Assembly (NCBI GenBank): GCA_964464175.1
Contig: CAYXFD010000004.1
Coordinates: forward strand, 73,892 to 137,891
Reading direction: 5' to 3'
DNA: 64,000 nucleotides
Origin: an uncultured Candidatus Cloacimonadota bacterium
GTDB taxonomy: Bacteria > Cloacimonadota > Cloacimonadia > Cloacimonadales > JAJBBL01
Shown here in pieces: positions 2,952-64,000 of this stretch (position 1 is the stretch's first letter; every line of letters starts with the position of its first letter). The translations under genes were made by a program, and so were the position numbers. Below the pieces are notes generated by a model that was given only the letters and a program-made list of their open reading frames with translations, was not told the origin of the DNA and searched no databases.

Positions 2952-2997
2952 AGTTCTTTAAAGCAGGACAGCTTAAGTTTTTTAGTTTTTGATTCTT

Positions 2998-5094: not shown

Positions 5095-5131
5095 GAAAAT
5101 GAGAATAGTGGTTTTACCAAGGGGGTGATGT

Positions 5132-42966: not shown

Positions 42967-43279
42967 AACCTCAGGTATTAGTGTGAGTCAAAAGTAATGA
43001 GATGATCGATGTACAGAGTATTTTTAGCTTTTTGATTAGAGTTTGAACATACATAATGTCCGATATTAGCATTAGAGGGCAAGGAAATTTAAATTTGCAG
43101 CAAGAGAACCTAAAACAGATTTTTGTGACGTAAAAATGTTTTTGAGATCTTGAAGGAAAAGGATGATGCTCTGTTATGAATATCAATTGCTAAAGGTAGA
43201 ACTTACACGGCGACTTTGATTGAAAAGAAGAGGCAGATTTAGGAGGAGAATAACGAGCAGTTATTTACGGGAGTATAGC

Positions 43280-43307
43280 TTGACATTTTAATGCTTAAAA
43301 ATATAGT
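43280..43307 (+). promoter_or_regulatory. Near-consensus sigma70-type promoter (TTGACA-16 nt-TATAGT) ~690 nt upstream of the giant ORF
   Basis: TTGACA at 43280-43285 and TATAGT at 43302-43307, spacer 16 nt. No plausible ORF between it and 43820. Confidence 0.4.
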
Positions 43308-43749
43308 ACAATTTTGCAGTAATGACAATGTAGTGATGGTAATTGTGAGGTTTTGTAAAAGAAATGATTTAGCGGGAGGAAGAGTGGAGGCTGTAGTTTA
43401 GTTATCTAAAGGGATAGATATTGTTAACTGTTATTGGATAATCCGGCGGGATATCTTCCTACAATGGGGGACTATGCATAATCGGAAGAGAGAGAGCACC
43501 GATAAGTCCGAGACTTGATTTGTTAAGAAATTTCTAACAAAAGTTGTTATAATTGTTGGTATTAAGGTTTGTCATATTATTAAAGGTTACTCAACGGCCG
43601 GAATTTGCACTAAAGCCGATTAAATAGAGGAAAAATGGGTTAAGTCTATGTTTAGCTGGTTGGTTTTCGATGACTGCTGGAGAATAAGTTGCGGGTAAAT
43701 ACCGAGCATAAGGGAAAAAAAAATGTAAAAAGCCTTGACAAAATTCCGA

Positions 43750-43777
43750 ATGACAAGAGAAGTTGTTGCAGTATAAA
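43750..43777 (+). promoter_or_regulatory. Second candidate promoter (ATGACA-16 nt-TATAAA), preceded by TTGACA and an A9 tract
   Basis: ATGACA at 43750-43755 and TATAAA at 43772-43777. A9 at 43715-43723. A TTGACA at 43735-43740 is 31 nt from the -10, which is too far. Confidence 0.3.
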
Positions 43778-43819
43778 TTCATTGTGAGGTGGCATGATTT
43801 TTAAGTTTAAGGAGAAACT

Positions 43820-43936
43820 ATGGGAATGGTAATAAGAGTGAGGTTTGAATGTGATATGGATTTTTTTGTGGCTACTGTTTTTTGGGGCTTTAATAGGGCT
43901 TTCATAACGGCTATGATAATAAATAATAGGAAGTGA
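43820..43936 (+). CDS. Candidate 38-codon upstream small ORF (hydrophobic peptide), below the ORF-track size cutoff
   Basis: AAGGAG at 43809-43814, 5-nt spacer, ATG 43820. Encodes MGMVIRVRFECDMDFFVATVFWGFNRAFITAMIINNRK and ends TGA 43934-43936, 56 nt before the giant ORF start. Confidence 0.25.
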   Translation: MGMVIRVRFECDMDFFVATVFWGFNRAFITAMIINNRK

Positions 43937-43992
43937 CAATCATGAAAAAAATAATAGGTAGATTAAATTTTTGCTCAAATGAGGAGGTTAAC

Positions 43993-46900
43993 ATGAGAGT
44001 AAAGCCATCTGGAACGCTGCGATTAGTTGCGTTTTTAGTTCTATTTGCAATGTTGTTCGGATTTTCAGCATCCGAATTGTATGCTCAATCAAGAGCTTTT
44101 GATGAAACGCATATTGCGGTATCAATAACAGATCCCGCTACTGATGCACGAGTAATCATTGGTTCGACAGTCCGGGTAGAGTTAACAGACCCGTCGATTG
44201 GAGATCCTACGGAAGTGGCTTCTGCTTCGGTCGACTATAGTTTGTTCGGAGTAGCAGACGAAGTCGATATGGACTGGGATGATGATATTTCCCGCTGGGT
44301 AGCAGAGTACATCGTCGTTGAAGGAACCTTGAATGATGAAAATGCTCATGTAGAAGTACATGCAGCGTATGTCGGTGGTGGCGGACAATGGACGGTTGAT
44401 GATGCCGTATTTGTAGTGAATAATATTGCTGCTGATGTCAATGGCTTAACTTTAGATATTGAAGTTGAGGATGCAGATGATGACGGCAAGGCAATTTTGG
44501 GTTCTACAATCATTGTTAAATTCGAGTTAAGTGATGTTGATGAAGCAACAGCTGACTTTTCCGACTTTGGTGGCGGGGCTGCTGTACCTTTTGTTGAAGA
44601 CGCCGGGGAATGGACAGCCCAATACCTTGTACAGGTTGGAGATGAGGAAGGAACGGGAGTTGTTGAGGTATCGGTGTTTGTGGATGGAAATCCCAATCCG
44701 GGTATCGTCGATAGCGATCCGATTGCTTACAACAACAAATTTCAAGCGGAAATTGAACTTATTGGGTATGATGATCCGGAAGTGCCGAACGACTTGGAAA
44801 CCGGTGCTGCCAATCTGGTTTACAGCATTACATACTTACCCGGAGCGGGTGTTGCCTGGAATGATGCAGACTTGCAGATTGGCTACATGGATGATGATGG
44901 GATAACCTTTGTTCCGATCGCAACGGTCGGGATAAGCGGTCCTTTTGTAGAAGGTGTTGATGAATACAGATGGAACCTGGCAATTCCTCACAATTTACCC
45001 CATGCCAGAGTAATTGTCTGGGTAGAATTGTTTGATGCCTTCGATAATGGAGCAGAGCACTATTCATATTTCAATATTACCCCGCTTCCCGAGATAACGA
45101 TCACAGATATAGACAATTTTGCTGATCCTATCCGGGTTGATGATAACGGATTTTTCTGGGTTCCCGCAGAAGGGAATGGGGTTCAGGTAACCTTTGACGT
45201 TTCCAATATACAGAGATTTGATGAAGACGAAGGTTTGATTGTTACGCTGAGTAATGAAGATGCCGATTTCGAAGTAGAGAAAGAGATTGTCATTGATCCT
45301 CTGGTTGCAACCTATACAGCAGAGTTTGCTTATGACGATATTTTTGACACAACAAGATCTGCAGCTACTCCGGGAACTCTTGACGGTAAGACAATTACTG
45401 TAGAGGTCAGCGGACAGGTAAAGGGATTTACGGCAGTAGATGATGACAGTGATTTGATCGAAGAGATTATTGATGAGACGACTTTCACAGTTGATCAGCA
45501 ACCGGTTATTACAGATGTTGTTTTCCTTAAGCCACACACAGATGGACTTACTGTTTTTAACAGTATCTGGCTTCAGGATCATCCTTATGCAGAGAATCGC
45601 AGAGTTGTTGTAACGGTTGAATCACCAAACGATGTAACTGTTCCGACGATATCTACGGTAGATTACATAGGTACTGACTTCAACTACAATCATATTGAAA
45701 CCGATGAGTACTTTGATGATGAGGATAATCGTTTTCAGGTCTTTACTTACCGGCTTCAATTTTTAGGATTAGAATTTGAAGAGGAAGAAGATATTTATGC
45801 CGTAATCGGTTTTGAATTCAGTACGGAGACAGTTTCAGGTTATCCCGGAGAGGATTACCTGCACGAGATAGTAGTTGTAGAGGTTCCTGACAGAGCAGTA
45901 GTAACCGGCTATTCTCCGGATGATGATACCAGAGATGATGAAGACACTTGGTTTTCTCCTCGACATCGACTTGATGTTGTCTATAATTTCAAGTCAATAG
46001 TAAATCCTTATACGAATAATGGACAACGACCACCAGCATTAGCTGATTTTGAAGAGATTGTCGATGATATCGTATTGAATTGGCGATTTGCTTTGCCTAT
46101 TGGTGAAGGATCAACCCAGGATATCATTGAAACAATAACACTTCAGCAGGGAACAGAAGAAGTTGACTATCCATTATATCAATATGCTGCCAGATGGGAA
46201 CAGTATCCAAATGTTCCGTTTATCTGGCACCATTATGATGATGGTGAGGATGTTACCCTGAGATTCATCGTTGATCTTTTATACAATCCCAACAATGCTG
46301 TTCCCACTGAGCGAACCATATACGTGGATAAGCAGGTACCGGTCTATGATGAAGATCTGCTTTATATCGCTGTTATGAGCGGGGAGCCTGTAGATGGTGA
46401 TTTCCAGCTTATTGATGATGGGTTTGACCCGAATAAGATTATTACTTTAGCTCTGACACCGGACGGAGAATGGCCGGCTGATGATGTCACCGGTGATCCG
46501 TATAAAATATATCTGAAATATAGGGCTAAAGATGATTTCTTACCACTCAATAACGGTTCTGGTGTCGCTGATATCGAAGCGCCATCAGTTCCTGCCGGAT
46601 GGTCTGTGAGCGAATTTATTCCAGCTGACTTGCGCGATCCCTTCCTGGAAAAAATATTTGCCCTGACTCCAGCAAATCCGGAAAACATTAATGAAGAGTA
46701 TGATTTCTCTGTCACCTTAGGTACGGTCATTGACAATGTCGGACATTACAACTATGGTGGTGAGATAAATCATTATGATCCAAACTGGCAGGGTTCAGGT
46801 CCTGAACTTAACTTCACCTTCACTTCAGATTATTTATACGAACTGGAATTTGCCAGAGCGTATAAGATTGATGAGCTTATCCATCCTGATGATAGATGGT

Positions 46901-49900
46901 TATGGGATTATTCAGCACCTTATGTTAAAACCGAGGCAAATATCGGTTTCCAGATGAAACTGGAAACTCCTGATGTCGGGCGCGGGGTAGATGTTGATGA
47001 GATTAACATTACCAGCATCGAGCTTAACACCTACTGGGTAACCAACACAACCGGAACGGATACCGTTTGGGTCGAGCTTGCCTATGACGCAGTCTCTGAT
47101 GTATGGTATCTTGATCAACCTGTCCAGGTAAGTGAGAATTACGGGCACGGTGATACGATTAAATTCCAATACAGAATAAACTATGAGATTACATACATAG
47201 GAAGCCCGGAAACTACAACTGCTTATAAACTATCATCTGTTATTGACGGTTTAGCTATAGTAGATGACCAAAGAGCTGGTCTCACTTCTGTTGAGATCTG
47301 GAGTGAATCTCTCGGCTACGGTCAGGAAGGTTACGTAGTTCCTGGTGATCAAGAAGGCATTTTACAGATAGAATTCGTTGATGTCGGTAACTATTTCTAT
47401 GGATTGGACGTAGATCCTGATAATCCGCATCAACCGGCAGTGCCAACTCTTATTGTCAATGATCTTGATAATTTTATAGCAGGAAGATATGACGAAGATT
47501 TAGATGTAGTTGTCCCGATGCCGGCAGCTTATTTTGTCCAAGCTGAAGATTTAGAGTGGACACAAACTGATGGTATTAACGGAATCTGGACAGCAACGAT
47601 TGACAATCTCGTGATCTTTGATCCGGGAACATTTATCGAATATTTTACCTACAATGTTAACGATGTTGTAGGTAATGGTTTCCATAATGGTCAGAGACAT
47701 GTCAGGATTGTTGCTAACGGTCCGATCGTTCCGTTTATTGATGATGCCAAATTGGTAACGGAACTTCAGACAGGTGAACAGGTTGACAATTATCTTGCCA
47801 GAATTTCCGAGATACCATTAGATACAGCTGTTGATCCCTACCAAAGAGTTGAGATTTTCATCGATACTGAATATACAGCTTATATAACTGAAGTCGATGT
47901 CTATCCTGCAGATCCTGAGGTAGAAGGATTAGAATTTGTTTTTGCCGGCTACCGTACTTCGGAATTTGGTGAACCGGGCCAGCATGTTGCTATGTTCTAT
48001 GCTCTTGTTCATGAGAACTTCAACCGTGAGCACGGTGAATTGATCGAATTGGTTGCCGAAACCCAAGGTGAACCTATCGGACAGCCGATATTCGAGATGA
48101 CCCATAACTTTGAGGTTATCTTTGATGATTCGGAAGTTTTGGATTTCACAGCAACAGAGGCTTTTGTTCAAGGTTCCGGTACGGGTTTGGGCGGACAAGA
48201 ATGGATTAATGATGTATTCCATCCGGAAAGAGATATGCGGGTTGTAGCTGTATTTCCTAACCTCGGTGGAATGCTGGTTGATGATGAAGATATCAATATA
48301 GATTTTCTGAACACCGATTTGACAAACTGGTTCGTACTGAATATTGATGAATTCGGTATTGAGAACAGGTTTGCCGATGACATAGAAGTTGTCTGGGTTC
48401 CGGATGAAGATGAAGTCCGAATGAGAGAAGATGAAGAAGAGACCGGAACGTATTATGCAACGGTCGTCTGGAATATCCCAGCTTTCGAAATACCTCTTGC
48501 CGAGGATTTAACGGAAGATTCTTATACATTAGCTATAGACTATAAAAATATCTATAAGCTTCACAAAGATCTGGACATTGAATTCTACAAGGATGTCGAA
48601 GCACCGGAAATAGTAGATTATAAGCTCTACTATCTTGATGCCGATGAAGAATATGTCGAGATCGACGATGCTTACACAGATGGTGTGTTTGCTGCTGATC
48701 AGGATTGGAGCAGAATCAGAGTATTCTTTGCTGATAATCCCGAGAATAATGCCGGCTTACAAGATGTTATGATAGCTTTCGAGGCTTATCCGGAAACTTA
48801 TCAGTACGACGATGAATATCCATTGGCACTGCTTGCTCTGAACAGCATTGAGAAAACGAACTGGGAGATTTTTGCAGACGGTACAGGTTATGTTGATCTG
48901 GAGTTTGTCGAAACTCTCGAGGGAGATCTCTATAGCGGCAGGCATTTAGCTAATGGTTTATATAAAGTCGTTATCAATCATTTGAAGGATAAGTTTGATA
49001 ATGAACCGTTAGATGAATTTGATGAACCAATCGAATTCGTACAGGATTTCTTGTTTAATTATCATCCTGCTGATATGACAATAAATATCGGTGGACAGAC
49101 TTCAGACTTTGCTCTCAACTTATCAGACGGTCCGCTTGATATTATGGCTTATACCGATTCTGAGATGGGAATTGAGGGTATCGAGTTCCGTCTTTATTAT
49201 GATGATAATAATCTGGGAGAAGATGGTTTTGATCCGACTAATACGAACCTTAACCATCACTTAACTGGTACTCCTGATTTCACCTTCCCCTATACCGCAA
49301 TCTGGAATATGGACGACGAAGCTTTCTACGCCTTCCTTGATGATTTTGCGTATAGAGTATATGATGATGATGGTGGCTATGAGTTATTACCATACAGAGG
49401 CTTCTATCTCAGAGCAAGTGCGATAGTCCAGGGTCGTGATCTTTTTGATGTCATTGAATACATTCAGTTAGTCGATGATGTCGCTCCGGTACCGGCTCCG
49501 CATATGGATGATATTGTGAAGATGATCAATTACATCTATCCGGCTCAGAATGTTCTTAATATACCGGTTGACTTCAATATCATCGATGCTGAAGAGGTAA
49601 AGGTTGAGATCTATAGTAACGGAGAACTGATAGAGACCCTGGTTCAGGATGTAGTTGATCCGCACGGAACAACCAACCTGGAATGGGATTTTGACGGCAG
49701 ATTACCAGGCACTTATACAACAGCAGTTTATGGAAAAGACATTAGCGAAAACTGGTCGAATGCTGTTGCCGGTCCGATGATCTATTTGGAAAATGCTGTA
49801 ATGAAAGCAGTTGTTGAGACGAATGTCTATCGCTTCAGAGATACTCCGCATGAAGAATTGCCTCTCAGTGGAGATCCCTATCTGACACTCGGCCCGAACT

Positions 49901-55900: not shown

Positions 55901-58900
55901 TTGATGATGAAGATGTCTATCCCGCCGATGAATACTATATCGGAGTCAGACCTCGTGAACGTGACACACGTCTCTACTTCCCGGTAGTCGATTATGCTCA
56001 TATCACTCTTGACCGGGTAATGGATGTTGAGTGGACACATCATGACACTGTTATTGATTTCAACGGTGAAGAGTTTGTTGTTCATTTCACAGTATTATCA
56101 GACGATGAACTAATCGTTGGTCCTGATGCCCAAATAGTTCTTGAGTATAAGATACCGGGCGTTGATATGCCTGATCATGATTGGCGGGCATTGAATGTCG
56201 GAAGCCAGACTCTTCAGAGAATAAGCACAACTACCTATAAAGCGATATTTACCGATATCGATATCTGGCATGTTCCTGCAGTTGATCTGCTCAACGGAGT
56301 GCTTAACTTCAGATTTACTGCTGAAGATAAAGCCTTCCCCGTACCGAATGAAGATCACATCGTAATGAACGACATCATGTATGATACTACACCTCCGGAA
56401 GCAGTCATTACTTCTGTCACTTTCGACGGAGAAGATGAAAATCTGGTAAATAACGATCCAATCGTTATTCCTTTAGGTTCGGTAATGGAATTAGAAGCTC
56501 ATGCCTGGGATGTTCTCTATGGTCAATATGTAGCTGTAGCTTCCGGAATTGAAAGAGTCGAATTCTATTATACAACTAATGACGCTCCTGTTCTTCCGGG
56601 GATCGATAACTGGCATGATGACTGGAGCCTGATAGGTGTTCAGGAAGATGGTGATGAGATGTTTACCCAATCCTGGAACACTAACGGGTACCCGTTAGGA
56701 AATAACTATAAACTGATGGTCGTAGCCTATGATAACGTAGGCAATGAATCAGCCGTTACTCCGGAAGATCTGATCAATGTGAATATCGTTGTACCGGAAA
56801 ACCTGGAACCCTATGCCTTTGTTACTGCAATGACATTCGATAATGATGTCGCTGATAGTGATTTCCTCTATGCAGTTTCCAAAGCCTGGGCTGCTGACGA
56901 TACAATCGATGCAGTCGTATTTGAATACTTCAACGGTGCGGAATGGACTCAGTTTACTCAAGCAGTTCAGGAACAAAACCTTTCTAACAATGAAATATTG
57001 TGGAAAGCCCAGTTCAATGCCGAAGGTATGGGAACATGGGGTGTAAGTGCCATCAGAGCGGTTGTAACCTACAACGGAATAGAATCAGCGATCAAACCGG
57101 AACTGGAAGTTGTTTATAACCAGGGTGGTATTCTTGAGCCACTTATTCCAACTGATGTTGAACTCTATTACGACAACCTGATAAATGTCTATAATGATGC
57201 TAATAACCTTTATGTGACTTCAATTCACGACGGTGAATGGGAAGAGATGCCTAACGTACTTAGTGTCTATGGTGGTTATGAAGCATCCTATAATGTTGAT
57301 GCTTCCGGAATGTATCACTTCTGGGCTTCATCATTATTCTATATCTATGATGGTGATAATGAACTTGAAGATGTAGTTGTTCACCTTGGTAAAGCAGAAT
57401 TGATCGTCTATGATTACGGAACAGTGTCAGATAACGACAATGTAATAATGACTACTATACCAGACGGTACAGACTATCTCTACTTCCAGAATGTTGGAAA
57501 TGAGATGGCTCCGCCTGAAGGTATTGAGTTCCTCAGCGACCAGAAAGCGGTTACAGCAAGTCCGGTTCAGGATCTTACTCTCACAATGGCTCTTAATGAT
57601 CTGATGGATGAGGGTACGGTTGTTGGTATGCATTATGATGGCGACATGTGGCAGTTAGTAGCGGCGGTCGTTGATGAAGATGCCATGACTGCTACCTTTG
57701 AAGCAGAAAGTGGTCACATCTATGCCGTTGGACAATACACCGGTGTAGTCATCGAAGCTGCCTTCGTTTCCTTCGATCCGCAGCACATTGATAACCTTAA
57801 CAACTATTGGACTGATGCAGATCCGGAAATCAAATTCTTCGTTTACGAAGGAATTGATGACAACGGCTACATGGCACCGGAACCGGGTACTTTCACTTAT
57901 GAAATGTACATATCTGTACCACCGCTTGATCATGAGGTCCTTATTCCAGATAATGATCTTACCTACGATCAAGGTTATGTAACTTATGATGCTGCAGATC
58001 TGGTACACATCCATGAATATACTGTAAGACTGGTAGTAAGTAAGGATGGCTTTGTTTCAGAAGCTTCGAGAAACTTCTGGGCAGATGCTGCCGGACCGAC
58101 TATCCAACCGCTGGCTTCAGGTGGTCAACTTAACCACGAAAACAGAATTATCGAAGCTATAATAATTGACGATGGTTCCGGAATAGCCGACGTTCAACTG
58201 ACTCTTACTTTTGTCAGAGGACGCACCAGCAGCTATTCATCAATCGTGGTTCCGTTAAGTAACCTGATGGTTAATGGTGATGTATATTCTTACGAAGTTA
58301 GTTATGATGATCTTATCCAGCTCGGATACAGATTCATCGACAGCTATGATTTGAGAGAAACCCAGATACTCTCAGCAACCTGGGAAGCAACAGATAATGT
58401 TGACTATAACACAGTCGCTGATCCTGCCTTCTATACAGTTAACATCGAAGGTCCGATTATTCACTTCACGGGCTTCGAAGATGGCTGGTGGCTCAATCCT
58501 ACTGCCAATACACCACTGACGTTCGACATTATCGTTCCTGACGGCAGAATTATGCCGACTGATGGTGTTGAGATTACCTTGATTGAAGTCACTCAGAGTG
58601 ATCCAACAGAGCCGGGTGACAATATTGAAAATATGATTCAATTCATGACCTTAGCTCCAATAGGACCTCCGGTTGATGGAGTCTATAGTTACGAACTCAA
58701 CTTCGGCTATAATATCTCACCACAGGCAATTGCTGTTAGACTGGAAGTTGAAGCAACAGATAACTATGAAATCAAGAACTACTCAGAGCAGACTTACGGT
58801 ACCGACTATGTTGCACCATTTGCCTGGGCATTATCTCCAATAGGTGATATTGTCGATCCTGAGGTACATCCACCAACATATGAATCAGCTGTTGTTTCTT

Positions 58901-60966
58901 ATGGAACTGAAGTAGCTATTGGAGTAGCTTATGAAGACCTTGCCGGATTTGTCGTCTTAGAAACCGGTGAATGGTGGTGGGATGACGAATTCCCGGGATG
59001 GTTCTGGAACGAGTACATGGTTTATTATACTGGCGGAAGCGGCATAAATACCAACGTAGTTGCAGTTTACCTTAACGGACATAATATCGAAGAAATGCCG
59101 GGTGCTAACGTGGATAAGAACTCAGGAACCTACATTGCTAACTTCGATGAACTTCTTGATCCGGGTGAATACAACGTAATTGCTACAGTTACCGATAATG
59201 CCGGTAATGTTGCTTCACTGTCATACAGCTTTACCGTTGTTGGCGGTGCTCCAACCATTACCTTCAATCCGGTTAACGGCGAAGAATGGTGGCTCAATTC
59301 TACCGAGCACAATGAGTTTAGTTTTGAGGTTGAATCTCAGAACCAGCTTGCCAGCGGTGGTATTGTTGCTAACTTCTACAGTGTACCTGCTAATGAACTG
59401 ATCCAGGGTCCGATGACCCCCACACCAGGAACTGATGAAACCTTTAGCGTTCATTTACAAGGTGGTATCGTTCCTGCTAATCAGACAGGTGTACGCTTAG
59501 AGGTAACCGCTACCGACGTTTGGGGTGGAACTTCAACCGGTAATCAGGTTTACGGTATTGATAACTATCAACCAATGATAACTTTCCATACCCCGGAAGA
59601 CGGAGCAGGCTTTGCTTACGGTCATGGTGTTAATATCACCGCAACTGTTAGTGATCAAGCTCCAACCAGAGCTCTGGTTTCCGGACCGAGCCGAAATACA
59701 ATGTCAACTGCCCGTGTAGCTTCCAGAGATATCGGACGAGAAGTACTTCAAGGAACTACAACCGGCATAACAGCAGATAGAATGCGTGGCGATGATGACG
59801 ACAGAGCAGGCTCAGGATTGATCGAAGTCAGACTGAGAGTTGTTAAGCCGTCAGGTGAATATGCCTATAATGAATTTGTTCACAGTGATGGTGTATTGCC
59901 GGTCATAGCAATTTCTGAAACGATCAATTCGATGGATCTCGATGAATACGGAACCTACAATATTAATATTGTAGCCAAAGATCGGGCTCATAATACAAGT
60001 GTAGCTTCCATTAGCTTCCAAGTTGTAACGACTCAGACCCCGGCAGTCACAATTAATCCGATAGAAGGATGGCTGAGTAACACAGAGACTAATGAATTAA
60101 CCTTCCAGGTTGATTCAGCTGATAACAACATCACAGCCTCTGCTAAGGTCTATGCTATACCTTCAGGAGATATGATAATTGAACCCACAACAATCAGCCC
60201 GAACCAGAATGGAGTTTATATCGTGAATCTGCACGGTAGTCTCATTCCAGAGCTTTCAACAGCAGTCAGACTGGAAGTAACGGCAACCGACAGCTTCGGA
60301 CTGGTAGGACAAGCAACACGACTGTTCAACGTAGATAATACTCCTCCGGAAATAACGGTATTTACTCCGGAATCCGGAACTGAGATTACCCTGATTGACG
60401 CAGAGACAACTATCAACATCTATGCTGAATTCAGTACGTCTGGTTCAGGCATTGCCAGTGCCAAACTGAGAATGACCAATCCGCATAATGTGGTTCAGAC
60501 AATTGCAGAAGTTGGAGCTGGCAGTGAGGAGATATCTGCTGTAGTCAGCGATCTCAGTGTAGGTAATTACACAGTGCGCTTAACTGTCATGGATATCGCA
60601 GGTAATCAGGTAACTGAAAGTATCACTTTCAGAGTGATCCCTGCTCCTGCTGAACCTGAAGTCCTAGCTCTCGGAGAAGCCTTTGTTTATCCGAATCCAG
60701 TTGATTCAGAAACAGGTGCAACCTTCAGAGTTGAGATGAATACTGCCGCTAACGTCACAATCAGAATCTATGACTTTGCCGGAAACGAAGTAAGGGTTCT
60801 GGACAGAAATGCTCACACCGGCAGATCAGATTACATGGAAGTTGTTTGGGACGGAAGAAACAATAACGGTCAGAAATTGGCACGCGGTGCATATTTCGCC
60901 CGCATAGTCGCTAACGATGGCAAAAAGATTGTTGAGAAAGTAGTAAAAGTAGCTATCATAAAATAA
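43993..60966 (+). CDS. Giant (5,657-aa) acidic secreted protein: array of Ig-like/beta-sandwich modules ending in a T9SS type-A-like C-terminal sorting domain (putative adhesin or surface-layer component)
   Basis: Single open frame of 16,974 nt. GAGGAGG at 43981-43987 lies 5 nt before ATG 43993. Signal peptide MRVKPSGTLRLVAFLVLFAMLFGFSASELYAQ. Recurrent module-boundary motifs D-x-x-x-P (DNTPPEITVF, DNYQPMITFH, DTTPPEAVIT, DTTPPMIEDV, DNVTPEIFSF, DNNAPETRFT, DTVAPTATVA, DTEPPLILDV). Also D..SGI..V (DDGSGIADVQL, DNESGIAGVQF, ASGIERVEF, GSGIASAKL) and D..GN (YDNVGNES, TDNAGNVAS, MDIAGNQVT, RDIAGNYAT). Confidence 0.85.
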   Translation: MRVKPSGTLRLVAFLVLFAMLFGFSASELYAQSRAFDETHIAVSITDPATDARVIIGSTVRVELTDPSIGDPTEVASASVDYSLFGVADEVDMDWDDDISRWVAEYIVVEGTLNDENAHVEVHAAYVGGGGQWTVDDAVFVVNNIAADVNGLTLDIEVEDADDDGKAILGSTIIVKFELSDVDEATADFSDFGGGAAVPFVEDAGEWTAQYLVQVGDEEGTGVVEVSVFVDGNPNPGIVDSDPIAYNNKFQAEIELIGYDDPEVPNDLETGAANLVYSITYLPGAGVAWNDADLQIGYMDDDGITFVPIATVGISGPFVEGVDEYRWNLAIPHNLPHARVIVWVELFDAFDNGAEHYSYFNITPLPEITITDIDNFADPIRVDDNGFFWVPAEGNGVQVTFDVSNIQRFDEDEGLIVTLSNEDADFEVEKEIVIDPLVATYTAEFAYDDIFDTTRSAATPGTLDGKTITVEVSGQVKGFTAVDDDSDLIEEIIDETTFTVDQQPVITDVVFLKPHTDGLTVFNSIWLQDHPYAENRRVVVTVESPNDVTVPTISTVDYIGTDFNYNHIETDEYFDDEDNRFQVFTYRLQFLGLEFEEEEDIYAVIGFEFSTETVSGYPGEDYLHEIVVVEVPDRAVVTGYSPDDDTRDDEDTWFSPRHRLDVVYNFKSIVNPYTNNGQRPPALADFEEIVDDIVLNWRFALPIGEGSTQDIIETITLQQGTEEVDYPLYQYAARWEQYPNVPFIWHHYDDGEDVTLRFIVDLLYNPNNAVPTERTIYVDKQVPVYDEDLLYIAVMSGEPVDGDFQLIDDGFDPNKIITLALTPDGEWPADDVTGDPYKIYLKYRAKDDFLPLNNGSGVADIEAPSVPAGWSVSEFIPADLRDPFLEKIFALTPANPENINEEYDFSVTLGTVIDNVGHYNYGGEINHYDPNWQGSGPELNFTFTSDYLYELEFARAYKIDELIHPDDRWLWDYSAPYVKTEANIGFQMKLETPDVGRGVDVDEINITSIELNTYWVTNTTGTDTVWVELAYDAVSDVWYLDQPVQVSENYGHGDTIKFQYRINYEITYIGSPETTTAYKLSSVIDGLAIVDDQRAGLTSVEIWSESLGYGQEGYVVPGDQEGILQIEFVDVGNYFYGLDVDPDNPHQPAVPTLIVNDLDNFIAGRYDEDLDVVVPMPAAYFVQAEDLEWTQTDGINGIWTATIDNLVIFDPGTFIEYFTYNVNDVVGNGFHNGQRHVRIVANGPIVPFIDDAKLVTELQTGEQVDNYLARISEIPLDTAVDPYQRVEIFIDTEYTAYITEVDVYPADPEVEGLEFVFAGYRTSEFGEPGQHVAMFYALVHENFNREHGELIELVAETQGEPIGQPIFEMTHNFEVIFDDSEVLDFTATEAFVQGSGTGLGGQEWINDVFHPERDMRVVAVFPNLGGMLVDDEDINIDFLNTDLTNWFVLNIDEFGIENRFADDIEVVWVPDEDEVRMREDEEETGTYYATVVWNIPAFEIPLAEDLTEDSYTLAIDYKNIYKLHKDLDIEFYKDVEAPEIVDYKLYYLDADEEYVEIDDAYTDGVFAADQDWSRIRVFFADNPENNAGLQDVMIAFEAYPETYQYDDEYPLALLALNSIEKTNWEIFADGTGYVDLEFVETLEGDLYSGRHLANGLYKVVINHLKDKFDNEPLDEFDEPIEFVQDFLFNYHPADMTINIGGQTSDFALNLSDGPLDIMAYTDSEMGIEGIEFRLYYDDNNLGEDGFDPTNTNLNHHLTGTPDFTFPYTAIWNMDDEAFYAFLDDFAYRVYDDDGGYELLPYRGFYLRASAIVQGRDLFDVIEYIQLVDDVAPVPAPHMDDIVKMINYIYPAQNVLNIPVDFNIIDAEEVKVEIYSNGELIETLVQDVVDPHGTTNLEWDFDGRLPGTYTTAVYGKDISENWSNAVAGPMIYLENAVMKAVVETNVYRFRDTPHEELPLSGDPYLTLGPNFYIDGDTPLIIDDENFIMLEAVIYNTYVDFADEPLMGIESLSFYGEFFEYLYYESFRSRDEEPPVPDHTVELVPNDPTHQPHVGVDGVIPSSIIPVFYNAVEDRHEGRIRLAVPNNIFDGFIAEGEDFEFWFKANIVPIDEFEGIDPPDPANLPFAGFRVDLRAPELAITPVYQPGLELMSWEKPGSFVVAGELPVYDINDVFVTGLQWKIEDEDDWKNAWFDNVVIPDVPDNMLYNYQDWMIMGGAADTFLGDSFEGAVQIRVFAEDEVGNLFESEVVLVDVDNNAPETRFTHAVHPTVDPELYIENTNLALIGQTVHTDNDSLFIYEGENALRLFVEKDGLDADLQPPLHVYFRNVNDPWQIDGAGHGVPYSPNVPLDPWNFGFVLPPNISMYQFTILAEDLPAGEYHFVVAAKDEMENLEGDTASDIHAYTGGLTPDELDAMDYLWIVVEPEPKVITEIVSHNDSDIVGGWINLAATSAQQNIDELHQTMRFERRMQGEDWIEIATIDKAVDSNDVFFHLKKSQIPQFDGLNGDLGIFIYNPANGDLWEMTAEMDDDEVVAWSATLDLPFGNYELEYHLDLNGDGVVNSIDSYIAYYQLGVGVDNSDYDQEHFHILPAAYLPPFVVTEWMYALDTTEITGARTEVGYGLYEIRALPLDIDVPDGYTEELHARELLIDNVTPEIFSFTATASEQMIAPGTEQDFVTSINPETLLVPFDDILELSYQYSLQPADTDENRQWITIETLDTNNMAGLYYWQWDAPIVDHMPEPDTWFYLRIYVRDIAGNYATSVEYPILVKGSGPEMLVDTINEVPIDSENNVFVIPEPVYDDVNDEYVVIIDVAATLQDTQPIVFTHPVTGEELSVEPLMAKFEYQYKESMPQPWSAWTEFDDEFVPVTNGIATMPLQLDPQDLWEGYYRFRVITKDIFDNETAAADAPVTYVIFDALLFSSPAMITQIGNVDEIVPDPADEDAFYTFAQSRTAYQGNIHINLADHDEIASITVEWNQENVDNGWNNIYTTPANQPVIETPFWNPPATFEDDYIYVRVKVHDGLGNSEVAHTVRVFIDTVAPTATVAYVGQTVPDNGGGARRDDEDQDPVIEDLLIANDKTVILNDRDLIIELDYHNLIDNDTINDIKKMEITVNRVYSLSGDRVMIVDPDDEFDRYLLFSETFGHINAAPVSIVIPADDVPRNFGPIVPLSNLPDGIYEIEIWLTDYAGNILLDDDDEPQPNTFDELQELYIDTEPPLILDVVSTSHPNNVAVYNETVQFDVSYLDLIGVPETDAFTVVFSHGDLTQEVNEYMFDEDTGNILFSWTPSPEFVQLFASGSTEKQIDMAIWATDYLGNAIANPFGMIFTLIATDPYYPAKIYVVRDNTVVDGDRDQFVDWTDDEGSVEHYIGTDRTPGEDPFEPMLYSYIPQTVAYGIDNLANVEYRFYYQHEDDDSDDWTLIGSKQGNQFDVGPNVLNYFIQHPALYHHQYSIAWDIVDLPGGNYIIRTVSNYSDVNDLIEEKISDIHVAVYEGTIIPHVVIYDNMTGLNVDVDQVERGMPYRYELRTENFEGDAQFVNSLRYKFRYVEFDANGNEVPVSEWKYFVDENYDNDPMVVDWHITDAPYIYPWYIYDYYTVDAYIKIVGYAKDNWGTLTLLNDILVNEDAYTYAQIVDTTPPMIEDVLVYWTDQDPIDPAYDWVSGALVDVDGDPVDNQVQVKAMLETNVDVHDIDYVEFWFEGVLIATHTNHIPINGELWTDLYAIELPNDPAVLSGMIEVVAYDVNDNASEPFEVMINIDNVDPVTELVVKDTEGNEIDPRYLGLWETVILDAQAYDNESGIAGVQFSFAHVDDVRDDHMYYSICEDELIPREDIGPYAYEFQIKPSYEEGDQARLQNGFVFGEYYVFKAVVVDNVGLEDESMTDEYQVTYGATATILRVEDPASNRWHPNVNNIIPVRLHGDFNIVTQVNVDDELERVEYLLHTENENWEEAMSLDIVDVNGGFANLVINLDDEDVYPADEYYIGVRPRERDTRLYFPVVDYAHITLDRVMDVEWTHHDTVIDFNGEEFVVHFTVLSDDELIVGPDAQIVLEYKIPGVDMPDHDWRALNVGSQTLQRISTTTYKAIFTDIDIWHVPAVDLLNGVLNFRFTAEDKAFPVPNEDHIVMNDIMYDTTPPEAVITSVTFDGEDENLVNNDPIVIPLGSVMELEAHAWDVLYGQYVAVASGIERVEFYYTTNDAPVLPGIDNWHDDWSLIGVQEDGDEMFTQSWNTNGYPLGNNYKLMVVAYDNVGNESAVTPEDLINVNIVVPENLEPYAFVTAMTFDNDVADSDFLYAVSKAWAADDTIDAVVFEYFNGAEWTQFTQAVQEQNLSNNEILWKAQFNAEGMGTWGVSAIRAVVTYNGIESAIKPELEVVYNQGGILEPLIPTDVELYYDNLINVYNDANNLYVTSIHDGEWEEMPNVLSVYGGYEASYNVDASGMYHFWASSLFYIYDGDNELEDVVVHLGKAELIVYDYGTVSDNDNVIMTTIPDGTDYLYFQNVGNEMAPPEGIEFLSDQKAVTASPVQDLTLTMALNDLMDEGTVVGMHYDGDMWQLVAAVVDEDAMTATFEAESGHIYAVGQYTGVVIEAAFVSFDPQHIDNLNNYWTDADPEIKFFVYEGIDDNGYMAPEPGTFTYEMYISVPPLDHEVLIPDNDLTYDQGYVTYDAADLVHIHEYTVRLVVSKDGFVSEASRNFWADAAGPTIQPLASGGQLNHENRIIEAIIIDDGSGIADVQLTLTFVRGRTSSYSSIVVPLSNLMVNGDVYSYEVSYDDLIQLGYRFIDSYDLRETQILSATWEATDNVDYNTVADPAFYTVNIEGPIIHFTGFEDGWWLNPTANTPLTFDIIVPDGRIMPTDGVEITLIEVTQSDPTEPGDNIENMIQFMTLAPIGPPVDGVYSYELNFGYNISPQAIAVRLEVEATDNYEIKNYSEQTYGTDYVAPFAWALSPIGDIVDPEVHPPTYESAVVSYGTEVAIGVAYEDLAGFVVLETGEWWWDDEFPGWFWNEYMVYYTGGSGINTNVVAVYLNGHNIEEMPGANVDKNSGTYIANFDELLDPGEYNVIATVTDNAGNVASLSYSFTVVGGAPTITFNPVNGEEWWLNSTEHNEFSFEVESQNQLASGGIVANFYSVPANELIQGPMTPTPGTDETFSVHLQGGIVPANQTGVRLEVTATDVWGGTSTGNQVYGIDNYQPMITFHTPEDGAGFAYGHGVNITATVSDQAPTRALVSGPSRNTMSTARVASRDIGREVLQGTTTGITADRMRGDDDDRAGSGLIEVRLRVVKPSGEYAYNEFVHSDGVLPVIAISETINSMDLDEYGTYNINIVAKDRAHNTSVASISFQVVTTQTPAVTINPIEGWLSNTETNELTFQVDSADNNITASAKVYAIPSGDMIIEPTTISPNQNGVYIVNLHGSLIPELSTAVRLEVTATDSFGLVGQATRLFNVDNTPPEITVFTPESGTEITLIDAETTINIYAEFSTSGSGIASAKLRMTNPHNVVQTIAEVGAGSEEISAVVSDLSVGNYTVRLTVMDIAGNQVTESITFRVIPAPAEPEVLALGEAFVYPNPVDSETGATFRVEMNTAANVTIRIYDFAGNEVRVLDRNAHTGRSDYMEVVWDGRNNNGQKLARGAYFARIVANDGKKIVEKVVKVAIIK
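58439..60450 (+). repeat. Three diverged ~250-258-aa super-modules inside the giant ORF
   Basis: Signature (A/G)VRLEV(E/T)ATD at 58732-58761, 59488-59517 and 60262-60291 (spacings 756 and 774 nt). Each is preceded by P.I.F/N..(E)GWW/WL(N/S).T....F and followed by D(N/T)..P.I....P(E).G. Confidence 0.7.
60685..60963 (+). other. T9SS-type C-terminal sorting domain of the giant protein
   Basis: VYPNPVDSETGATFRVEMNTAANVTIRIYDFAGNEVRVLDRNAHTGRSDYMEVVWDGRNNNGQKLARGAYFARIVANDGKKIVEKVVKVAIIK aligns motif-for-motif with the C-terminus of the 11589-12980 protein. Confidence 0.7.
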
Positions 60967-60976
60967 ATGAGTAGCT

Positions 60977-60998
60977 GGGGCACGGCTTGCCGTGCCCC
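60977..60998 (+). terminator. GC-rich hairpin (partial terminator or attenuator) between the giant ORF and the beta-barrel gene
   Basis: GGGGCACGG-CTTG-CCGTGCCCC, 11 nt after the stop, followed by CTGCTTCTCTT (weak U-tract). The next gene's SD is 18 nt further on. Confidence 0.45.
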
Positions 60999-61026
60999 CT
61001 GCTTCTCTTAAATAATGGAGGAATAA

Positions 61027-61980
61027 ATGAAAAATGTTAGATTGATACTCATTGCCCTGATGCTAATTACTGCTTTAGGTTCTCTCTTTGCCGACAATTC
61101 GGCTGCTGTCTATACAAGGATCGGCATCGATGCTCGTTCAGTCGGAATGGGTGGAACCGGAGCAGCTTTCCTGGATAATGTTACAGCAACCTATATCAAT
61201 CCTGCTGTTCTGGCTGATGTGAAAAGAATTGAGTTCTCTTCCGCAACCCGGCAGAATATGGAGTGGGATAAGAATCAGCACGCTGCTGCCTTAGGGTTTA
61301 AACTCCCTTACGGTTATGTAGCCTTGTCATGGCAGAATGCCCATACCAGTGATTTTCAGGGTTATAATGCCGATGGGACTGCAAGCGACAAATTCAGCGT
61401 TGGTGATCATAACTTAGGAGTTAGTTTTGCTGCGAGTTTTAGCCGTTTTAACTTTGGGATTACTCCTAGACTCTATATGTCGAACATTGAAGATGAATCA
61501 ACTACCGGTTATGGAGTTGATCTCGGTTTTCTGTATCATATTAACCGTTATTTTAATTTCGGTTTTGCCGCCCGGGACGTAATCTCAGATTATGATGGAG
61601 AAGGGACAGAAGTATCTCGAGTATTTATCCCCTCGATAGCTGCTTTTCCGATTCCCGGTTTGACGATAGCCGCTGATCTTATTGGGGTAGAGGATTTTGA
61701 TGAACCGCAACTTAGATTAGGAGCCGAATACTGGATTGGTGTCGGTGATGAAGCCGATATGGGTTCCAGCTTATCGGGGATAAGAGTCAGAGAGAGTTCT
61801 ACCTGGTCAGATATTATGTCAAAAACACAAGCCGGTATTCGCGGTGGTGTTAATGACGGGGCATTTACAGCAGGTTTTGGACTTAGATTTCAAATGTTAG
61901 AGCTCAATTATGCTTATCAGGTAGCCAAGGAAGAATTCACCAACGATCATCACACCTATTCTCTGTTGCTTAGATTCTGA
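61027..61980 (+). CDS. Outer-membrane beta-barrel protein, PorV/PorQ-like (or PorP/SprF-like)
   Basis: Signal peptide MKNVRLILIALMLITALGSLFA. N-terminal GIDARSVGMGGTGAAFLDNVTATYINPAVLA motif typical of PorV/PorQ-type barrels. Alternating strands and a terminal ...YSLLLRF. GGAGG SD 5 nt upstream. Confidence 0.5.
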   Translation: MKNVRLILIALMLITALGSLFADNSAAVYTRIGIDARSVGMGGTGAAFLDNVTATYINPAVLADVKRIEFSSATRQNMEWDKNQHAAALGFKLPYGYVALSWQNAHTSDFQGYNADGTASDKFSVGDHNLGVSFAASFSRFNFGITPRLYMSNIEDESTTGYGVDLGFLYHINRYFNFGFAARDVISDYDGEGTEVSRVFIPSIAAFPIPGLTIAADLIGVEDFDEPQLRLGAEYWIGVGDEADMGSSLSGIRVRESSTWSDIMSKTQAGIRGGVNDGAFTAGFGLRFQMLELNYAYQVAKEEFTNDHHTYSLLLRF

Positions 61981-62095
61981 TAGGTTGTTGAGATAATGAT
62001 AACTTAGTTATCCAAGCCAGTTCGTACTTCACGGAGCAGGTGTCATTTTTTAAAATGATAGTTTTCCGTTGATGACTGACAGGATGCCTTGAAAT

Positions 62096-62152
62096 GCAGA
62101 AGCTTAGGTGAAGCTGTCATAAGCTTTACCTTAGCTTTATGCAGAGGTATTT
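62096..62152 (+). terminator. Imperfect long hairpin followed by a T-rich tract (possible terminator)
   Basis: GCAGAAGCTTAGGTGAAGCT-GTCAT-AAGCTTTACCTTAGCTTTATGC, then ...TTTATTTTTCTTAGTCTTTTTT. Confidence 0.35.
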
Positions 62153-62208
62153 ATTTTTCTTAGTCTTTTTTGATTCTGGATTGATAACGTAATCTAAGGG
62201 AGATTGAT

Positions 62209-64000
62209 ATGAAACGAGTATTTATATTATTAATGGTTCTCCTGCTTTCTTCTTCAATTTTTGCCGATACTAATCAGCACCGTAGTCTTATTGATGCAGC
62301 TCAATCTTATGAAGTAGGCAACTATGAGCAGGCATTGAATACCATGAACAGAATCGAATCTGTTTATCATGGAACTCCGGAATATGCCTTGTTGATGGGT
62401 AAGATTCTGCTGGAACTTGGTGACTATATGAATGCCTATAATTGGCTCACCGAATATGCTGTGAGTTATATGGGCAAAGAAGATATAGTCAGTGAAGAGT
62501 TACTGCAGAAGATCTATGAAGCGGGATTGTATCAGGAGATATCCCCGGTAGCTGTTTCTTTGGGAAGACTTGCCGGCAACATCAACAGTATAGGTTCAGA
62601 GTATGCACCGGTTTTAGCCGATGAAGGCAGAACCATTATCTTCGGATCTAACAGGCGGAGTATTTTTGACAGAGAGAATATATTTATTTCAGAATTTATA
62701 AACCAGAGATGGACAGATCCGATTGAGATAAAAGAGCTTTGTACTGACCGTAATGAAACTGTTGGATCGATTTCCAAAGACGGCACAACTCTCTATATTT
62801 CCGGTCAGTATGATAGAAGAGAAAGAACATCCAATATCTACAAATCGAATCTCAGATACGGATACTGGGAAAAACCGGAGATGATAGCGTCAGTCTCCAG
62901 CAGGTTTCACGATATTCAACCTTTTGTATATAACGAACAGGCTATGTTCTTTACCAGTAATCGGCTTGGTAATAACCGGAATTATGACATTTTTGTCTCT
63001 GAAAAGATCGGAGGCATGTGGCAAACACCTGTAAGTATCGGTGAAGTTATCAATACCGGCTATGATGAACAAACACCCTTTTTAAGTCCTGATGGACAGA
63101 CTCTTTATTTTTCCTCTAATGGTCATCCCGGTTATGGTGGTTTTGATATTTTCAAAGCAGAGAGAAAAGATGATACCTGGACTAACTGGACTAAACCGGA
63201 GAATCTAGGACCTATCATAAACTCCAATAGAGATGATCGTTATTTTTTCATTTCACCGGATGATAGATACGCCTACATGTCTTCCAGTCGTTTTGACGGA
63301 ATTGGCCAAGAAGACATCTATTACATTGATTTGCTCAAACTTAGAGAAATGGAGCAGATGATTGCCGATATGATGCTCAAGGATATTGTTGAAGAATATG
63401 ATATCGAAGTAAACGGTATTGTTGTTGATGAAGTCAATAATCCCGTCTCAACTGAGATCAAGTGGACTTATATCCACGAGGATACGATCAATAATATTGA
63501 GATAATAAGTGCTGAAGACGGTACTTTCAATCTCAGTGTTCCTTATATTGAGCGGCTGAAATATCATGTCGAAGCTCCTGGTTATGCAGTTCGGGAAGAG
63601 ATATTAGTCGTACCTTCTCACACAGCTGCCTTTAATGTTACAATTCGTTTGGTCAGTCTCGAAAATGAGATGAAGATCTCAGGTATAGTTACAGACACAG
63701 AAGAGCAGGGATTGAGGGCAATGTTGACCTGGTCTTACACTTTGTTGGATGAGGTTATAGATTATCATGTTATCTCTAACCACGATGGTCACTACAGTAT
63801 TTCTCTTCCCTTGATGTCTCAGATCAACTATCGTGTCGAGAAGAATAACTATTTGCCGATATCGGGTACAATGGTAGTTCCTGAAGATGAATCTTCATTA
63901 ACGAGGGACTTCACAATGCTGAGATTGGCTGCTGATGAAATATTCACTATCGATAATATTCTGTTTGAATTTGCCAAAGCTGATCTGCTTCCAGAGTCTT
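62209..64000 (+). CDS. PorE-like outer-membrane-associated protein: signal peptide, TPR-like region, PD40/TolB-like beta-propeller repeats, two carboxypeptidase-regulatory-like domains, start of an OmpA_C domain (3' end off the right edge)
   Basis: Not in the supplied track because there is no stop in the window. I checked by hand that the frame is open from ATG 62209 to nt 64000 (597 codons). MKRVFILLMVLLLSSSIFA. TPR-like YEVGNYEQALNTM...LELGDYMNAYNWL. PD40-like SEYAPVLADEGRTIIFGSNR, ISKDGTTLYISG, QPFVYNEQAMFFTSNR, EQTPFLSPDGQTLYFSSN, FISPDDRYAYMSSSR. CRD-like VNGIVVDEVNNPV.. and ISGIVTDTEEQGL... OmpA onset FTIDNILFEFAKADLLPES. Confidence 0.75.
   Translation, partial: MKRVFILLMVLLLSSSIFADTNQHRSLIDAAQSYEVGNYEQALNTMNRIESVYHGTPEYALLMGKILLELGDYMNAYNWLTEYAVSYMGKEDIVSEELLQKIYEAGLYQEISPVAVSLGRLAGNINSIGSEYAPVLADEGRTIIFGSNRRSIFDRENIFISEFINQRWTDPIEIKELCTDRNETVGSISKDGTTLYISGQYDRRERTSNIYKSNLRYGYWEKPEMIASVSSRFHDIQPFVYNEQAMFFTSNRLGNNRNYDIFVSEKIGGMWQTPVSIGEVINTGYDEQTPFLSPDGQTLYFSSNGHPGYGGFDIFKAERKDDTWTNWTKPENLGPIINSNRDDRYFFISPDDRYAYMSSSRFDGIGQEDIYYIDLLKLREMEQMIADMMLKDIVEEYDIEVNGIVVDEVNNPVSTEIKWTYIHEDTINNIEIISAEDGTFNLSVPYIERLKYHVEAPGYAVREEILVVPSHTAAFNVTIRLVSLENEMKISGIVTDTEEQGLRAMLTWSYTLLDEVIDYHVISNHDGHYSISLPLMSQINYRVEKNNYLPISGTMVVPEDESSLTRDFTMLRLAADEIFTIDNILFEFAKADLLPES

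Follow-up and report, generated by a model that had tools for sequence, protein, structure and literature searches.

How might a bacterium export a protein of 5,657 amino acids (aa) and then keep it on its surface? The question is raised by a locus of an uncultured Candidatus Cloacimonadota bacterium, which we analyzed within a 64,000-nucleotide (nt) stretch of contig CAYXFD010000004.1 (hereafter "the window"). In this locus, a giant open reading frame (ORF) for a secreted, acidic protein is followed by a gene for a small outer-membrane beta-barrel and then by a gene whose product resembles PorE, a type IX secretion system (T9SS) protein. A first-pass annotation of the window had described these genes as encoding a T9SS-type cargo, its own barrel, and an anchor. 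We consider it probable that the three genes form a surface-fibre module, wherein the giant protein would be exported by a T9SS-type route, the barrel would hold it, and the PorE-like protein would brace the barrel to peptidoglycan. The coordinates of all features are collected in Table 1.

Three adjacent genes for a giant protein, a barrel, and a PorE-like protein

The giant ORF runs without interruption for 16,974 nt, from ATG 43993 to a stop codon ending at position 60966, and both the ORF list and the translation agree with the earlier claim of a single unbroken frame of 5,657 aa. The stop-to-stop frame opens earlier, at GTG 43933. Position 43993 is nonetheless the plausible start, given the Shine–Dalgarno sequence and the signal peptide. 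Both features had been noted before and both are present there (GAGGAGG, and MRVKPSGTLRLVAFLVLFAMLFGFSASELYA followed by Q; the signal peptide was read by eye from the translation, without a predictor).

The protein had also been described as rich in Asp and Glu, and the measured content is 10.3% Asp and 8.0% Glu, together with 1.5% Lys, 2.6% Arg, and one Cys. For comparison, six housekeeping proteins encoded in the window have 6.3% Lys, 5.4% Arg, and 1.0% Cys. All 20 long orthologue fragments (L015–L043 in our numbering of loci) share this strong depletion; they contain 0.7–2.1% Lys, 1.2–2.3% Arg, and 0–0.7% Cys (at most 0.2% Cys in all but one). Acidity varies more between the orthologues than this depletion does. 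A fibre of such composition would be strongly anionic, and we speculate that the scarcity of Lys, Arg, and Cys may shield it from trypsin- or gingipain-type proteases.

Pfam matches of the giant are confined to about its last 650 aa, where the Ig-like domains Big_13 (57 bits) and Big_3_2 (27.9 bits) precede the tail. Upstream of approximately aa 5,000 there are no Pfam or NCBIfam matches, and a Pfam search at E ≤ 10 yields only sub-threshold ones. Likewise, a sequence search of the PDB found zero relatives for aa 1–4800 or for an orthologue profile of aa 3190–4190. The first-pass annotation had likewise recognized no characterized family for the module array. Profiles derived from aligned orthologues do reveal that modules from aa ~1580 to 5600 are weakly homologous to one another, Big_13-type modules included. 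The description of the giant as a chain of many diverged Ig-like modules can therefore be upheld for the C-terminal two thirds, and is only plausible for the N-terminal third, as the Ig-like call for the first ~1,500 aa comes from reading the sequence alone.

The giant is no recent repeat protein. Self-BLAST returned the identity match alone, and BLAST with fragments located internal repeats only in aa ~3780–5560, mostly in aa 4780–5560, where a unit of ~260 aa occurs three times. Outside aa ~4780–5560, recent tandem repeats are lacking. Conservation along the protein increases toward the C-terminus when orthologues are compared. A single dockerin-like calcium-binding loop, DLNGDGVVNSID, lies at aa ~2552–2563 (positions 51646–51681) and reaches only E 0.096 with Pfam Dockerin_1. 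Cohesin/dockerin systems are reported from some Cloacimonadota (PMC8542988).

The giant ends in a C-terminal sorting domain (CTD) of the kind carried by T9SS cargo. Its residues 5565–5652 match TIGR04183 with 31.1 bits (cut-off 23). The tail also matches PF13860 FlgD_ig with 39.6 bits (cut-off 27), and the score of 26.8 bits for PF18962 (Por_Secre_tail) is just below the cut-off of 27. For type B CTDs (TIGR04131/PF13585), the model CHU_C gives only 23.2 bits (cut-off 27), less than the type A models do. Judged by these scores, the tail is a type A CTD, not type B. An alignment of this tail with the C-terminus of an otherwise unrelated 463-aa protein of the window had been proposed by inspection, and it is reproduced by BLASTP (30% identity over 74 aa of the giant's last 100 aa, E 2e-9). 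Both C-termini also exceed the TIGR04183 cut-off of 23 (31.1 and 41.4 bits). The 463-aa protein shows that other cargo of this genome uses the signal too, and numerous further proteins with a type A CTD are encoded in the window and in flanking DNA of relatives. Among closer relatives the CTD of the giant hardly varies (...GRNN.G.KLARG.YFARVIANDGKKIVEKVVKIAIKK), and it is unlike the generic CTD that the 463-aa protein carries.

The barrel gene starts 60 nt past the stop codon of the giant, and its 317-aa product has the motif GIDARSVGMGGTGAAF...YINPAVLA and the terminal Phe that had been reported. It had been labeled PorV/PorQ/SprF-like. The PorV/PorQ part of this label holds, with a match to the PorV_fam model (E 8e-22) and with PorV as the top fold. 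The PorP/SprF part does not, as TIGR03519 gives no match at E ≤ 0.1, and a SprF/PorP identity was rejected on this basis. A profile of 33 barrel orthologues finds PorV of Flavobacterium johnsoniae (6h3i_F) as its best match in the PDB (E 2e-10). The AlphaFold2 (AF2) model of the barrel has 14 strands and an N-terminal plug region (predicted local distance difference test, pLDDT, 76; predicted template modeling score 0.72), and a Foldseek search with it places PorV structures 8gl6_F (E 2.7e-10, TM 0.66) and 6h3i_F at the top, with FadL and TodX next. With PorV ahead of FadL by both sequence and fold, the possibility that the barrel belongs to an unrelated family, such as FadL only, was likewise discarded.

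More specific hidden Markov models score well below their cut-offs: PorQ NF033711 gives 62 bits (cut-off 220), PorV2 NF052325 gives 47 (325), and PorV NF033710 gives 24 (250). Because the scores are sub-cut-off, and yet one orthologue (P0121) bears the NCBI name PorV/PorQ family protein and the relatives L013 and L064 pass PorV_fam (157 and 202 bits), we regard the barrel as a divergent member of the PorV/PorQ superfamily, not an equivalog. An exhaustive profile search returned 18,156 relatives at E ≤ 1e-3, of which 192 reach E ≤ 1e-30. The barrel thus belongs to a large and mostly unstudied family of small barrels, mostly ~300 aa in length, that are related to PorV/PorQ.

One segment sets the clade apart. 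The nearly invariant insert GSSLSGIRV.E.TTWS.ILS, at barrel aa ~241–266 (positions 61747–61824), lies between predicted strands 10 and 11, has low pLDDT, and does not occur in the wider ~300-aa family. The topology of the barrel model predicts that it forms a periplasmic turn, which makes it a candidate docking site for the PorE-like protein.

The third gene runs past the end of the window and is complete, at 807 aa, on the identical contig L001. Its product had been described as TPR and PD40 repeats, two CRD-like domains, and the onset of OmpA_C. We find the PD40 repeats (62–64 bits), one CRD (CarboxypepD_reg, 33.5–34.4 bits, cut-off 32.3), and OmpA_C at aa ~585–680 (74.5 bits), of which the first ~13 aa lie inside the window. 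The second CRD and the TPR have no separate Pfam matches. Residues 30–376 align to positions 63–419 of the PorE model, a span that overlaps the TPR (25–149) and propeller (167–435) of PorE. Beyond OmpA_C, ~120 aa are without a family match. The closest structures to OmpA_C in the PDB are generic OmpA-like domains, and the PorE domain 6TOP is found at E 2e-13. Orthologues of the third protein span 509–937 aa stop-to-stop, and some are without a CRD match. The domain matches indicate a protein that is PorE-like in architecture (TPR, beta-propeller, CRD, OmpA_C), and not a PorE equivalog. A generic Pal was considered and rejected, given the matches to the PorE and CHU_0125 multidomain models and the presence of both CRD and OmpA_C.

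Conservation of the gene order and gene fusions

One genome per GTDB species was scanned with two narrow peptide patterns, which would miss divergent barrel paralogues, and 31 Cloacimonadota loci were recovered, several of them on complete chromosomes. A colinear giant homologue ends just upstream of the barrel at 29 of these 31 loci; the sequence of the other two, L017 and L045, begins only at the barrel or within it and thus lacks the upstream side. After the barrel, the next gene is homologous to the third gene, again at 29 of 31 loci, and the remaining contigs, L032 and L045, stop at the barrel or close to it. The giant-homologue ORF is open through the whole 10-kb flank at 16 loci (at least 3,311 aa) and reaches the contig start at 11 others, with L030 (2,338 aa) and L039 (1,841 aa) as short exceptions. 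The giant–barrel–OmpA order is also found on metagenome contigs, with giants of 5,657, 5,696, 6,464/6,485, and 7,031 aa. The linkage, which the first-pass annotation had proposed to compare in related genomes, is kept in Cloacimonadota down to 36% barrel identity.

Across the scanned loci, identity to the proteins of the window is 36–69% for the barrel, and over the aligned parts 24–42% for the giant and 28–43% for the third protein. Relative to the barrel, the giant evolves about twice as fast, its tail excepted. The two-pattern scan found one barrel locus per Cloacimonadota genome, save in one bin. Close homologues of the barrel all come from metagenome-assembled genomes of Candidatus Cloacimonadota. 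Because of this, the host can be assigned to Cloacimonadota, which bears out the earlier guess that it is not a classical member of the Bacteroidota. At one locus (L003), two glycosyltransferase genes follow the cassette.

In other lineages, some barrels are fused to the modules that are encoded separately in the window. Of the 150 top-ranked barrel relatives, 36 have at least 400 aa, and these include 14 that carry OmpA (one has three) and 9 that carry TPR. At locus L094, a 1,828-aa CTD protein homologous to giant aa 5057–5643 is followed after 54 nt by a barrel–OmpA_C fusion that has matches to the window barrel at E 8e-22 and to the third gene's OmpA_C at E 5e-20. Another fusion, P0061, sits after an ORF of at least 3,246 aa. 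Gene fusion of this kind supports a cooperation of the barrel with OmpA or TPR modules. At L094 (4460–11413; also at L095), polysaccharide genes come after the fusion: UDP-glucose dehydrogenase, UbiA, beta-helix, epimerase, DegT aminotransferase, and sugar transferase.

In other phyla, PorV-family barrels come right after large, mostly CTD-bearing proteins, such as a PorU-like sortase in WOR-3 and an ExeM/NucH-like protein in TA06. Further proteins located right before such barrels include an M6-like inactive metalloprotease and a 1,206-aa protein in Ignavibacteria. By this recurring adjacency, CTD proteins paired with PorV-family barrels form a general theme. A conserved protein of ~1,200–1,300 aa directly precedes a PorV-family barrel at L064, L060, L061, L069, L070, and L074 (Ignavibacteria), and at L071, L058, and L050, in lineages that comprise Ignavibacteria, Rhodothermales, Marinimicrobia, and Calditrichota. 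This protein combines DNDGDG-type Ca-binding repeats and an fn3-like region with a CTD whose last residues are ...AVIK or ...AIIK. It has no NCBIfam match, and it may be an unrecognized PorV partner in these four lineages.

Regulatory elements and neighboring genes

Immediately past the stop codon of the giant, and ~20 nt before the Shine–Dalgarno sequence of the barrel gene, the transcript can form a GC-rich stem-loop (Table 1). A hairpin occurs at the same place in all 18 orthologous giant–barrel spacers that were folded (L003, L005, L014, L015, L018, L019, L023–L026, L029, L031, L033, L034, L036, L037, L040, and L042), with free energies of −20 to −29.5 kcal/mol and differing stem sequences. 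RNAalifold detects weak covariation among these hairpins, and the spacers align poorly. Loci from Cloacimonadales have a second hairpin, in which CUUCCUC is paired to GGAGGAA, the Shine–Dalgarno sequence of the barrel gene. A terminator scan did not call the hairpin at 60969–61004, which has no T-run. These hairpins may serve as an attenuator, as an mRNA or 3′ stabilizer, or as a translational-coupling element, and the stem-loop of the window is a candidate for setting the giant-to-barrel expression ratio.

Upstream of the giant lies a 1.4-kb AT-rich stretch (42589–43992) with no convincing gene and no Rfam match. Within it is a near-consensus sigma-70-type promoter candidate that would imply a 5′ leader of ~680 nt for the giant. 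The number of sigma-70-type sites upstream of the giant is not above shuffle expectation.

The rest of the window is ordinary chromosome, with the end of rpoC and genes for EF-G, HisS, ThyX, DeoC, RlmN, PBP1a, LolCDE, MgtE, and RsmA. The base composition of the window shows no discontinuity. The long signal recognition particle (SRP) RNA that had been claimed is a match to RF01854. The N-terminal domain of the 463-aa CTD protein is of the choice-of-anchor D or PapD-like kind. Two further ORFs, at 28164–32291 (−; 1,374 aa) and 39662–41413 (+; 583 aa), have zero Pfam or NCBIfam matches.

Table 1. Features of the window, with position 1 as its first nucleotide
Feature	Coordinates	Strand	Basis or remark
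Long (Bacillus-type) SRP RNA	11058-11321	-	RF01854, 184.6 bits
Second, unrelated type A CTD protein, 463 aa	11589-12980	-	TIGR04183, 41.4 bits; outside the cassette
CHASE2-adenylate/guanylate cyclase	13707-15866	+	Family scan
LVIVD-repeat protein	41605-42588	-	Family scan
Promoter-like site TTGACA-16-TATAGT, sigma-70-type near-consensus	43280-43307	+	11/12 matches; candidate
Shine–Dalgarno sequence GAGGAGG, 5 nt before the ATG of the giant	43981-43987	+	Read from sequence
Giant gene, 5,657 aa, secreted, very acidic, largely diverged Ig-like modules	43993-60966	+	ORF list, translation
Sec signal peptide of the giant, aa 1-31	43993-44085	+	Predicted cut between LYA and Q; mature N-terminal Gln
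Most conserved, predicted membrane-proximal part of the giant, aa ~4780-5560	58330-60672	+	Three copies of a ~260-aa unit with Big_13 and Big_3_2
T9SS type A CTD of the giant, aa 5565-5657, ends KVAIIK	60685-60963	+	TIGR04183, FlgD_ig
GC-rich stem-loop between giant and barrel	60969-61004	+	Free energy −28.5 kcal/mol
PorV/PorQ-family 14-stranded outer-membrane barrel, 317 aa, N-terminal plug motif, C-terminal Phe	61027-61980	+	Hidden Markov models, AF2, Foldseek
PorE-like periplasmic protein, first 597 of 807 aa	62209-64000	+	Hidden Markov models; open at window end

A proposed surface-fibre module and the competing readings

The surface-fibre module that we favor is supported by the domain identities, the gene order, the evolutionary rates, and the barrel–OmpA and barrel–TPR fusions. 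The physical contacts, CTD retention, and export through a SprA-type translocon are our inferences. As suggested by its signal peptide, the giant would be exported by Sec, and its type A CTD would then target it to a T9SS-type route through the outer membrane. It would stay cell-bound, in the form of a long, strongly acidic string of Ig-like modules, with the variable N-terminal part pointing outward and the conserved C-terminal part at the membrane. The adjacent PorV/PorQ-family barrel would receive the CTD and hold the fibre non-covalently and permanently; the conserved adjacency and the high conservation of the CTD point indirectly to such binding. The PorE-like protein would bind the barrel from the periplasmic side via its TPR/propeller part, and its OmpA_C domain would fix the assembly to peptidoglycan, such that the cell wall would carry the pull on the fibre.

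There are precedents for several of these steps. In the T9SS attachment complex, PorU stays bound to PorV, and PorZ to PorQ. Secreted T9SS components that carry a CTD of their own include PorA, PorU, and PorZ (PMC11285876). Complexes of PorE, PorP, and PG1035, and of SprB bound to SprF, have been described (PMC9143113), and for type B cargo the cognate shuttle proteins are encoded alongside (PMC12618676).

Several observations weigh against this proposal. The window and the fetched ±10-kb flanks of relatives showed none of the core T9SS genes (SprA/Sov, PorU, PorZ, PorK/L/M/N). A PorU-like query from the WOR-3 locus matched the Cloacimonadota loci at CTD tails only, and neither PorU nor PorZ is among the eight neighboring CTD proteins that were scanned. 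For Cloacimonadota, published work goes no further than saying that a T9SS "may be present" (PMC11285876), and the report it cites merely notes a CTD on a scaffoldin (PMC8542988). The barrel reaches 78.2 bits with PorV_fam NF033709, below the cut-off of 90, and the full third protein reaches 191 bits with PorE NF052230 (cut-off 600) and 218 bits with CHU_0125_OmpA (cut-off 620). The signal peptide of the third protein, MKRVFILLMVLLLSSSIFA followed by DT, is of the signal peptidase I type with no Cys and no lipobox, unlike that of Porphyromonas gingivalis PorE. A single-sequence AF2 prediction for giant aa 33–1000 gave no usable structure (pLDDT 32). Finally, a single PorV is said to serve all type A CTDs in Bacteroidota (PMC12618676), and the barrel might be the general PorV of this organism.

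In the last case, which we think rather unlikely, the barrel would shuttle all type A cargo of Cloacimonadota, and the giant would be an ordinary client whose CTD is cut by a PorU-type sortase before linkage to lipopolysaccharide. Adjacency would then reflect co-expression of the shuttle with its most demanding cargo. The numerous additional proteins that bear a type A CTD, in the window as well as in flanking DNA of relatives, would also need a shuttle, no second PorV-family paralogue was recognized among the named Cloacimonadota matches, and a PorV-family barrel does stand beside a PorU-like sortase in another phylum (L087). The pattern scan agrees with this reading in finding one barrel locus per genome except in one bin; however, it used only two narrow peptides that divergent paralogues escape, and thus it does not establish a single copy. 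A freely diffusing shuttle would not predict the phylum-wide linkage to a giant and an OmpA protein, nor the fusion beside a giant-like protein elsewhere. Moreover, the barrel is ~70 aa shorter than canonical PorV and scores higher with the PorQ model (62 bits) than with the PorV model (24 bits).

It is improbable that the giant has no functional tie to the barrel and the OmpA-family protein, and that these two serve the envelope in general, as a FadL-type uptake channel and an outer-membrane integrity protein of the Pal/TolB-like or CHU_0125 type. Such a view can draw on the JGI label of one barrel orthologue (long-subunit fatty acid transport protein), on FadL and TodX as the next best folds, on the slightly higher score of CHU_0125_OmpA (218 bits) than of PorE (191 bits), and on the generic OmpA-like domains nearest to OmpA_C. 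However, PorV outranks FadL in sequence and in fold, the gene order persists at 36% barrel identity and recurs elsewhere as a giant-like protein followed by a barrel–OmpA fusion, and in several other phyla PorV-family barrels come right after a CTD protein. Least probable of all are misassembly, a chimeric join, or pseudogene decay as the origin of the 17-kb ORF. Some relatives do have a split or shorter gene (5,740 + 1,301 aa at L006, 1,841 aa at L039, and 2,338 aa at L030, stop-to-stop), and breaks inside it are frequent in short-read contigs. By contrast, the window ORF has no interruption, colinear orthologues extend over more than 3,300 aa at 16 of the 31 loci, complete long-read chromosomes included, and nine contigs carry the identical barrel. 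An artefact is very unlikely because independent ENA and JGI assemblies are identical to the window across 12,974 nt and yield the same 5,657-aa product, and because there is no break in base composition. The unbroken ORF and the identical contigs led us to reject an assembly artefact, against which the first-pass annotation had advised a check. The split or short giants themselves (L006 1–9944, L039 4425–9947, L030 2921–9934) could reflect sequencing error, frameshift, genuine truncation, or decay.

Compared with known systems, the surface-fibre module would most resemble SprB–SprF of F. johnsoniae and PG1035–PorP–PorE of P. gingivalis, in which a very large or surface-retained CTD protein is encoded beside its own outer-membrane barrel (PMC9143113, PMC12618676). 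In P. gingivalis, the TPR/propeller/CRD/OmpA_C protein PorE binds the barrel and links it to peptidoglycan. Cargo of both systems is held non-covalently and is not linked to anionic lipopolysaccharide (A-LPS), as we propose for the giant. In contrast to both, the CTD here is type A rather than type B, the barrel is PorV/PorQ (FadL-like) rather than PorP/SprF, the PorE-like gene lies inside the cassette, the host is a member of the Cloacimonadota, and a motility context is not evident. The pairs PorU–PorV and PorZ–PorQ are similar in that the cargo-side partners carry a CTD (PMC11285876), and adjacency like that of porU and porV is seen elsewhere at L087 (PorU-like), L013 (M6-like), and L064. 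They differ in that the partner here is a 5,657-aa non-enzymatic array of modules, not a sortase or A-LPS carrier. Furthermore, the barrel has ~317 aa versus ~350–400 aa for known PorV/PorQ and fails the PorV, PorQ, and PorV2 equivalog cut-offs, and the PorE-like gene is linked here, which is not so for PorV or PorQ.

The third protein shares with PorE (PG1058) and its Tannerella forsythia and F. johnsoniae paralogues the order of regions, with a PorE-model N-terminus, PD40, CRD, and OmpA_C, and it shares with the F. johnsoniae PorE homologues a signal peptide without a lipoprotein signal (PMC7192894). It differs from PorE in its score (191 bits versus a cut-off of 600), in its extra ~120 aa past OmpA_C, and in the 509–937-aa range of its orthologues. 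The giant itself is comparable to the Bap/RTX-type adhesins LapA and SiiE in size, acidity, and chains of Ig-like modules, and its proposed retention at the outer membrane by a dedicated partner would be a further likeness. Unlike LapA and SiiE, it carries a T9SS CTD rather than a type I secretion signal, and its modules before approximately the last 650 aa are too diverged for Pfam. Literature searches returned no description of the gene trio or of giant proteins in Cloacimonadota.

A bolder extension of the proposal is possible, and we offer it tentatively. The trio might represent a phylum-wide third kind of T9SS anchoring module, in which a type A fibre that undergoes no PorU processing is held for life by a private, miniaturized PorQ-like barrel, with the PorE-like protein bolting the barrel to peptidoglycan and with the barrel and wall part fused in some lineages. 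The fibre, ~0.2 micrometres long if there are ~55 Ig-like modules, would then be the main surface structure of these uncultured syntrophs, and might bring the cells into contact with partners or particles and at the same time withstand the proteases that they secrete themselves.

To our knowledge, T9SS biology has been learned almost wholly from two Bacteroidota models. In these, type A signals are thought to share one PorV, and private partners of the PorP type are known for type B cargo only. The interpretation supported by our data is that the cognate-barrel-plus-PorE anchoring logic of type B cargo occurs here outside Bacteroidota, built from a PorV-family barrel and a signal of type A. 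If true, type A cargo with its own PorV/PorQ-family barrel and a PorE-like brace would extend the principle of a cognate shuttle or anchor to the PorV family. The arrangement is kept across an uncultured sister phylum and is echoed by barrel–OmpA and barrel–TPR fusions in at least one other lineage, which provides independent genomic support for a cell-wall link of the barrel–PorE type. The giant, with its ~5,000 residues of protein without a recognizable family, is thereby nominated as the dominant surface structure of Cloacimonadota, which are key degraders of amino acids and propionate in digesters.

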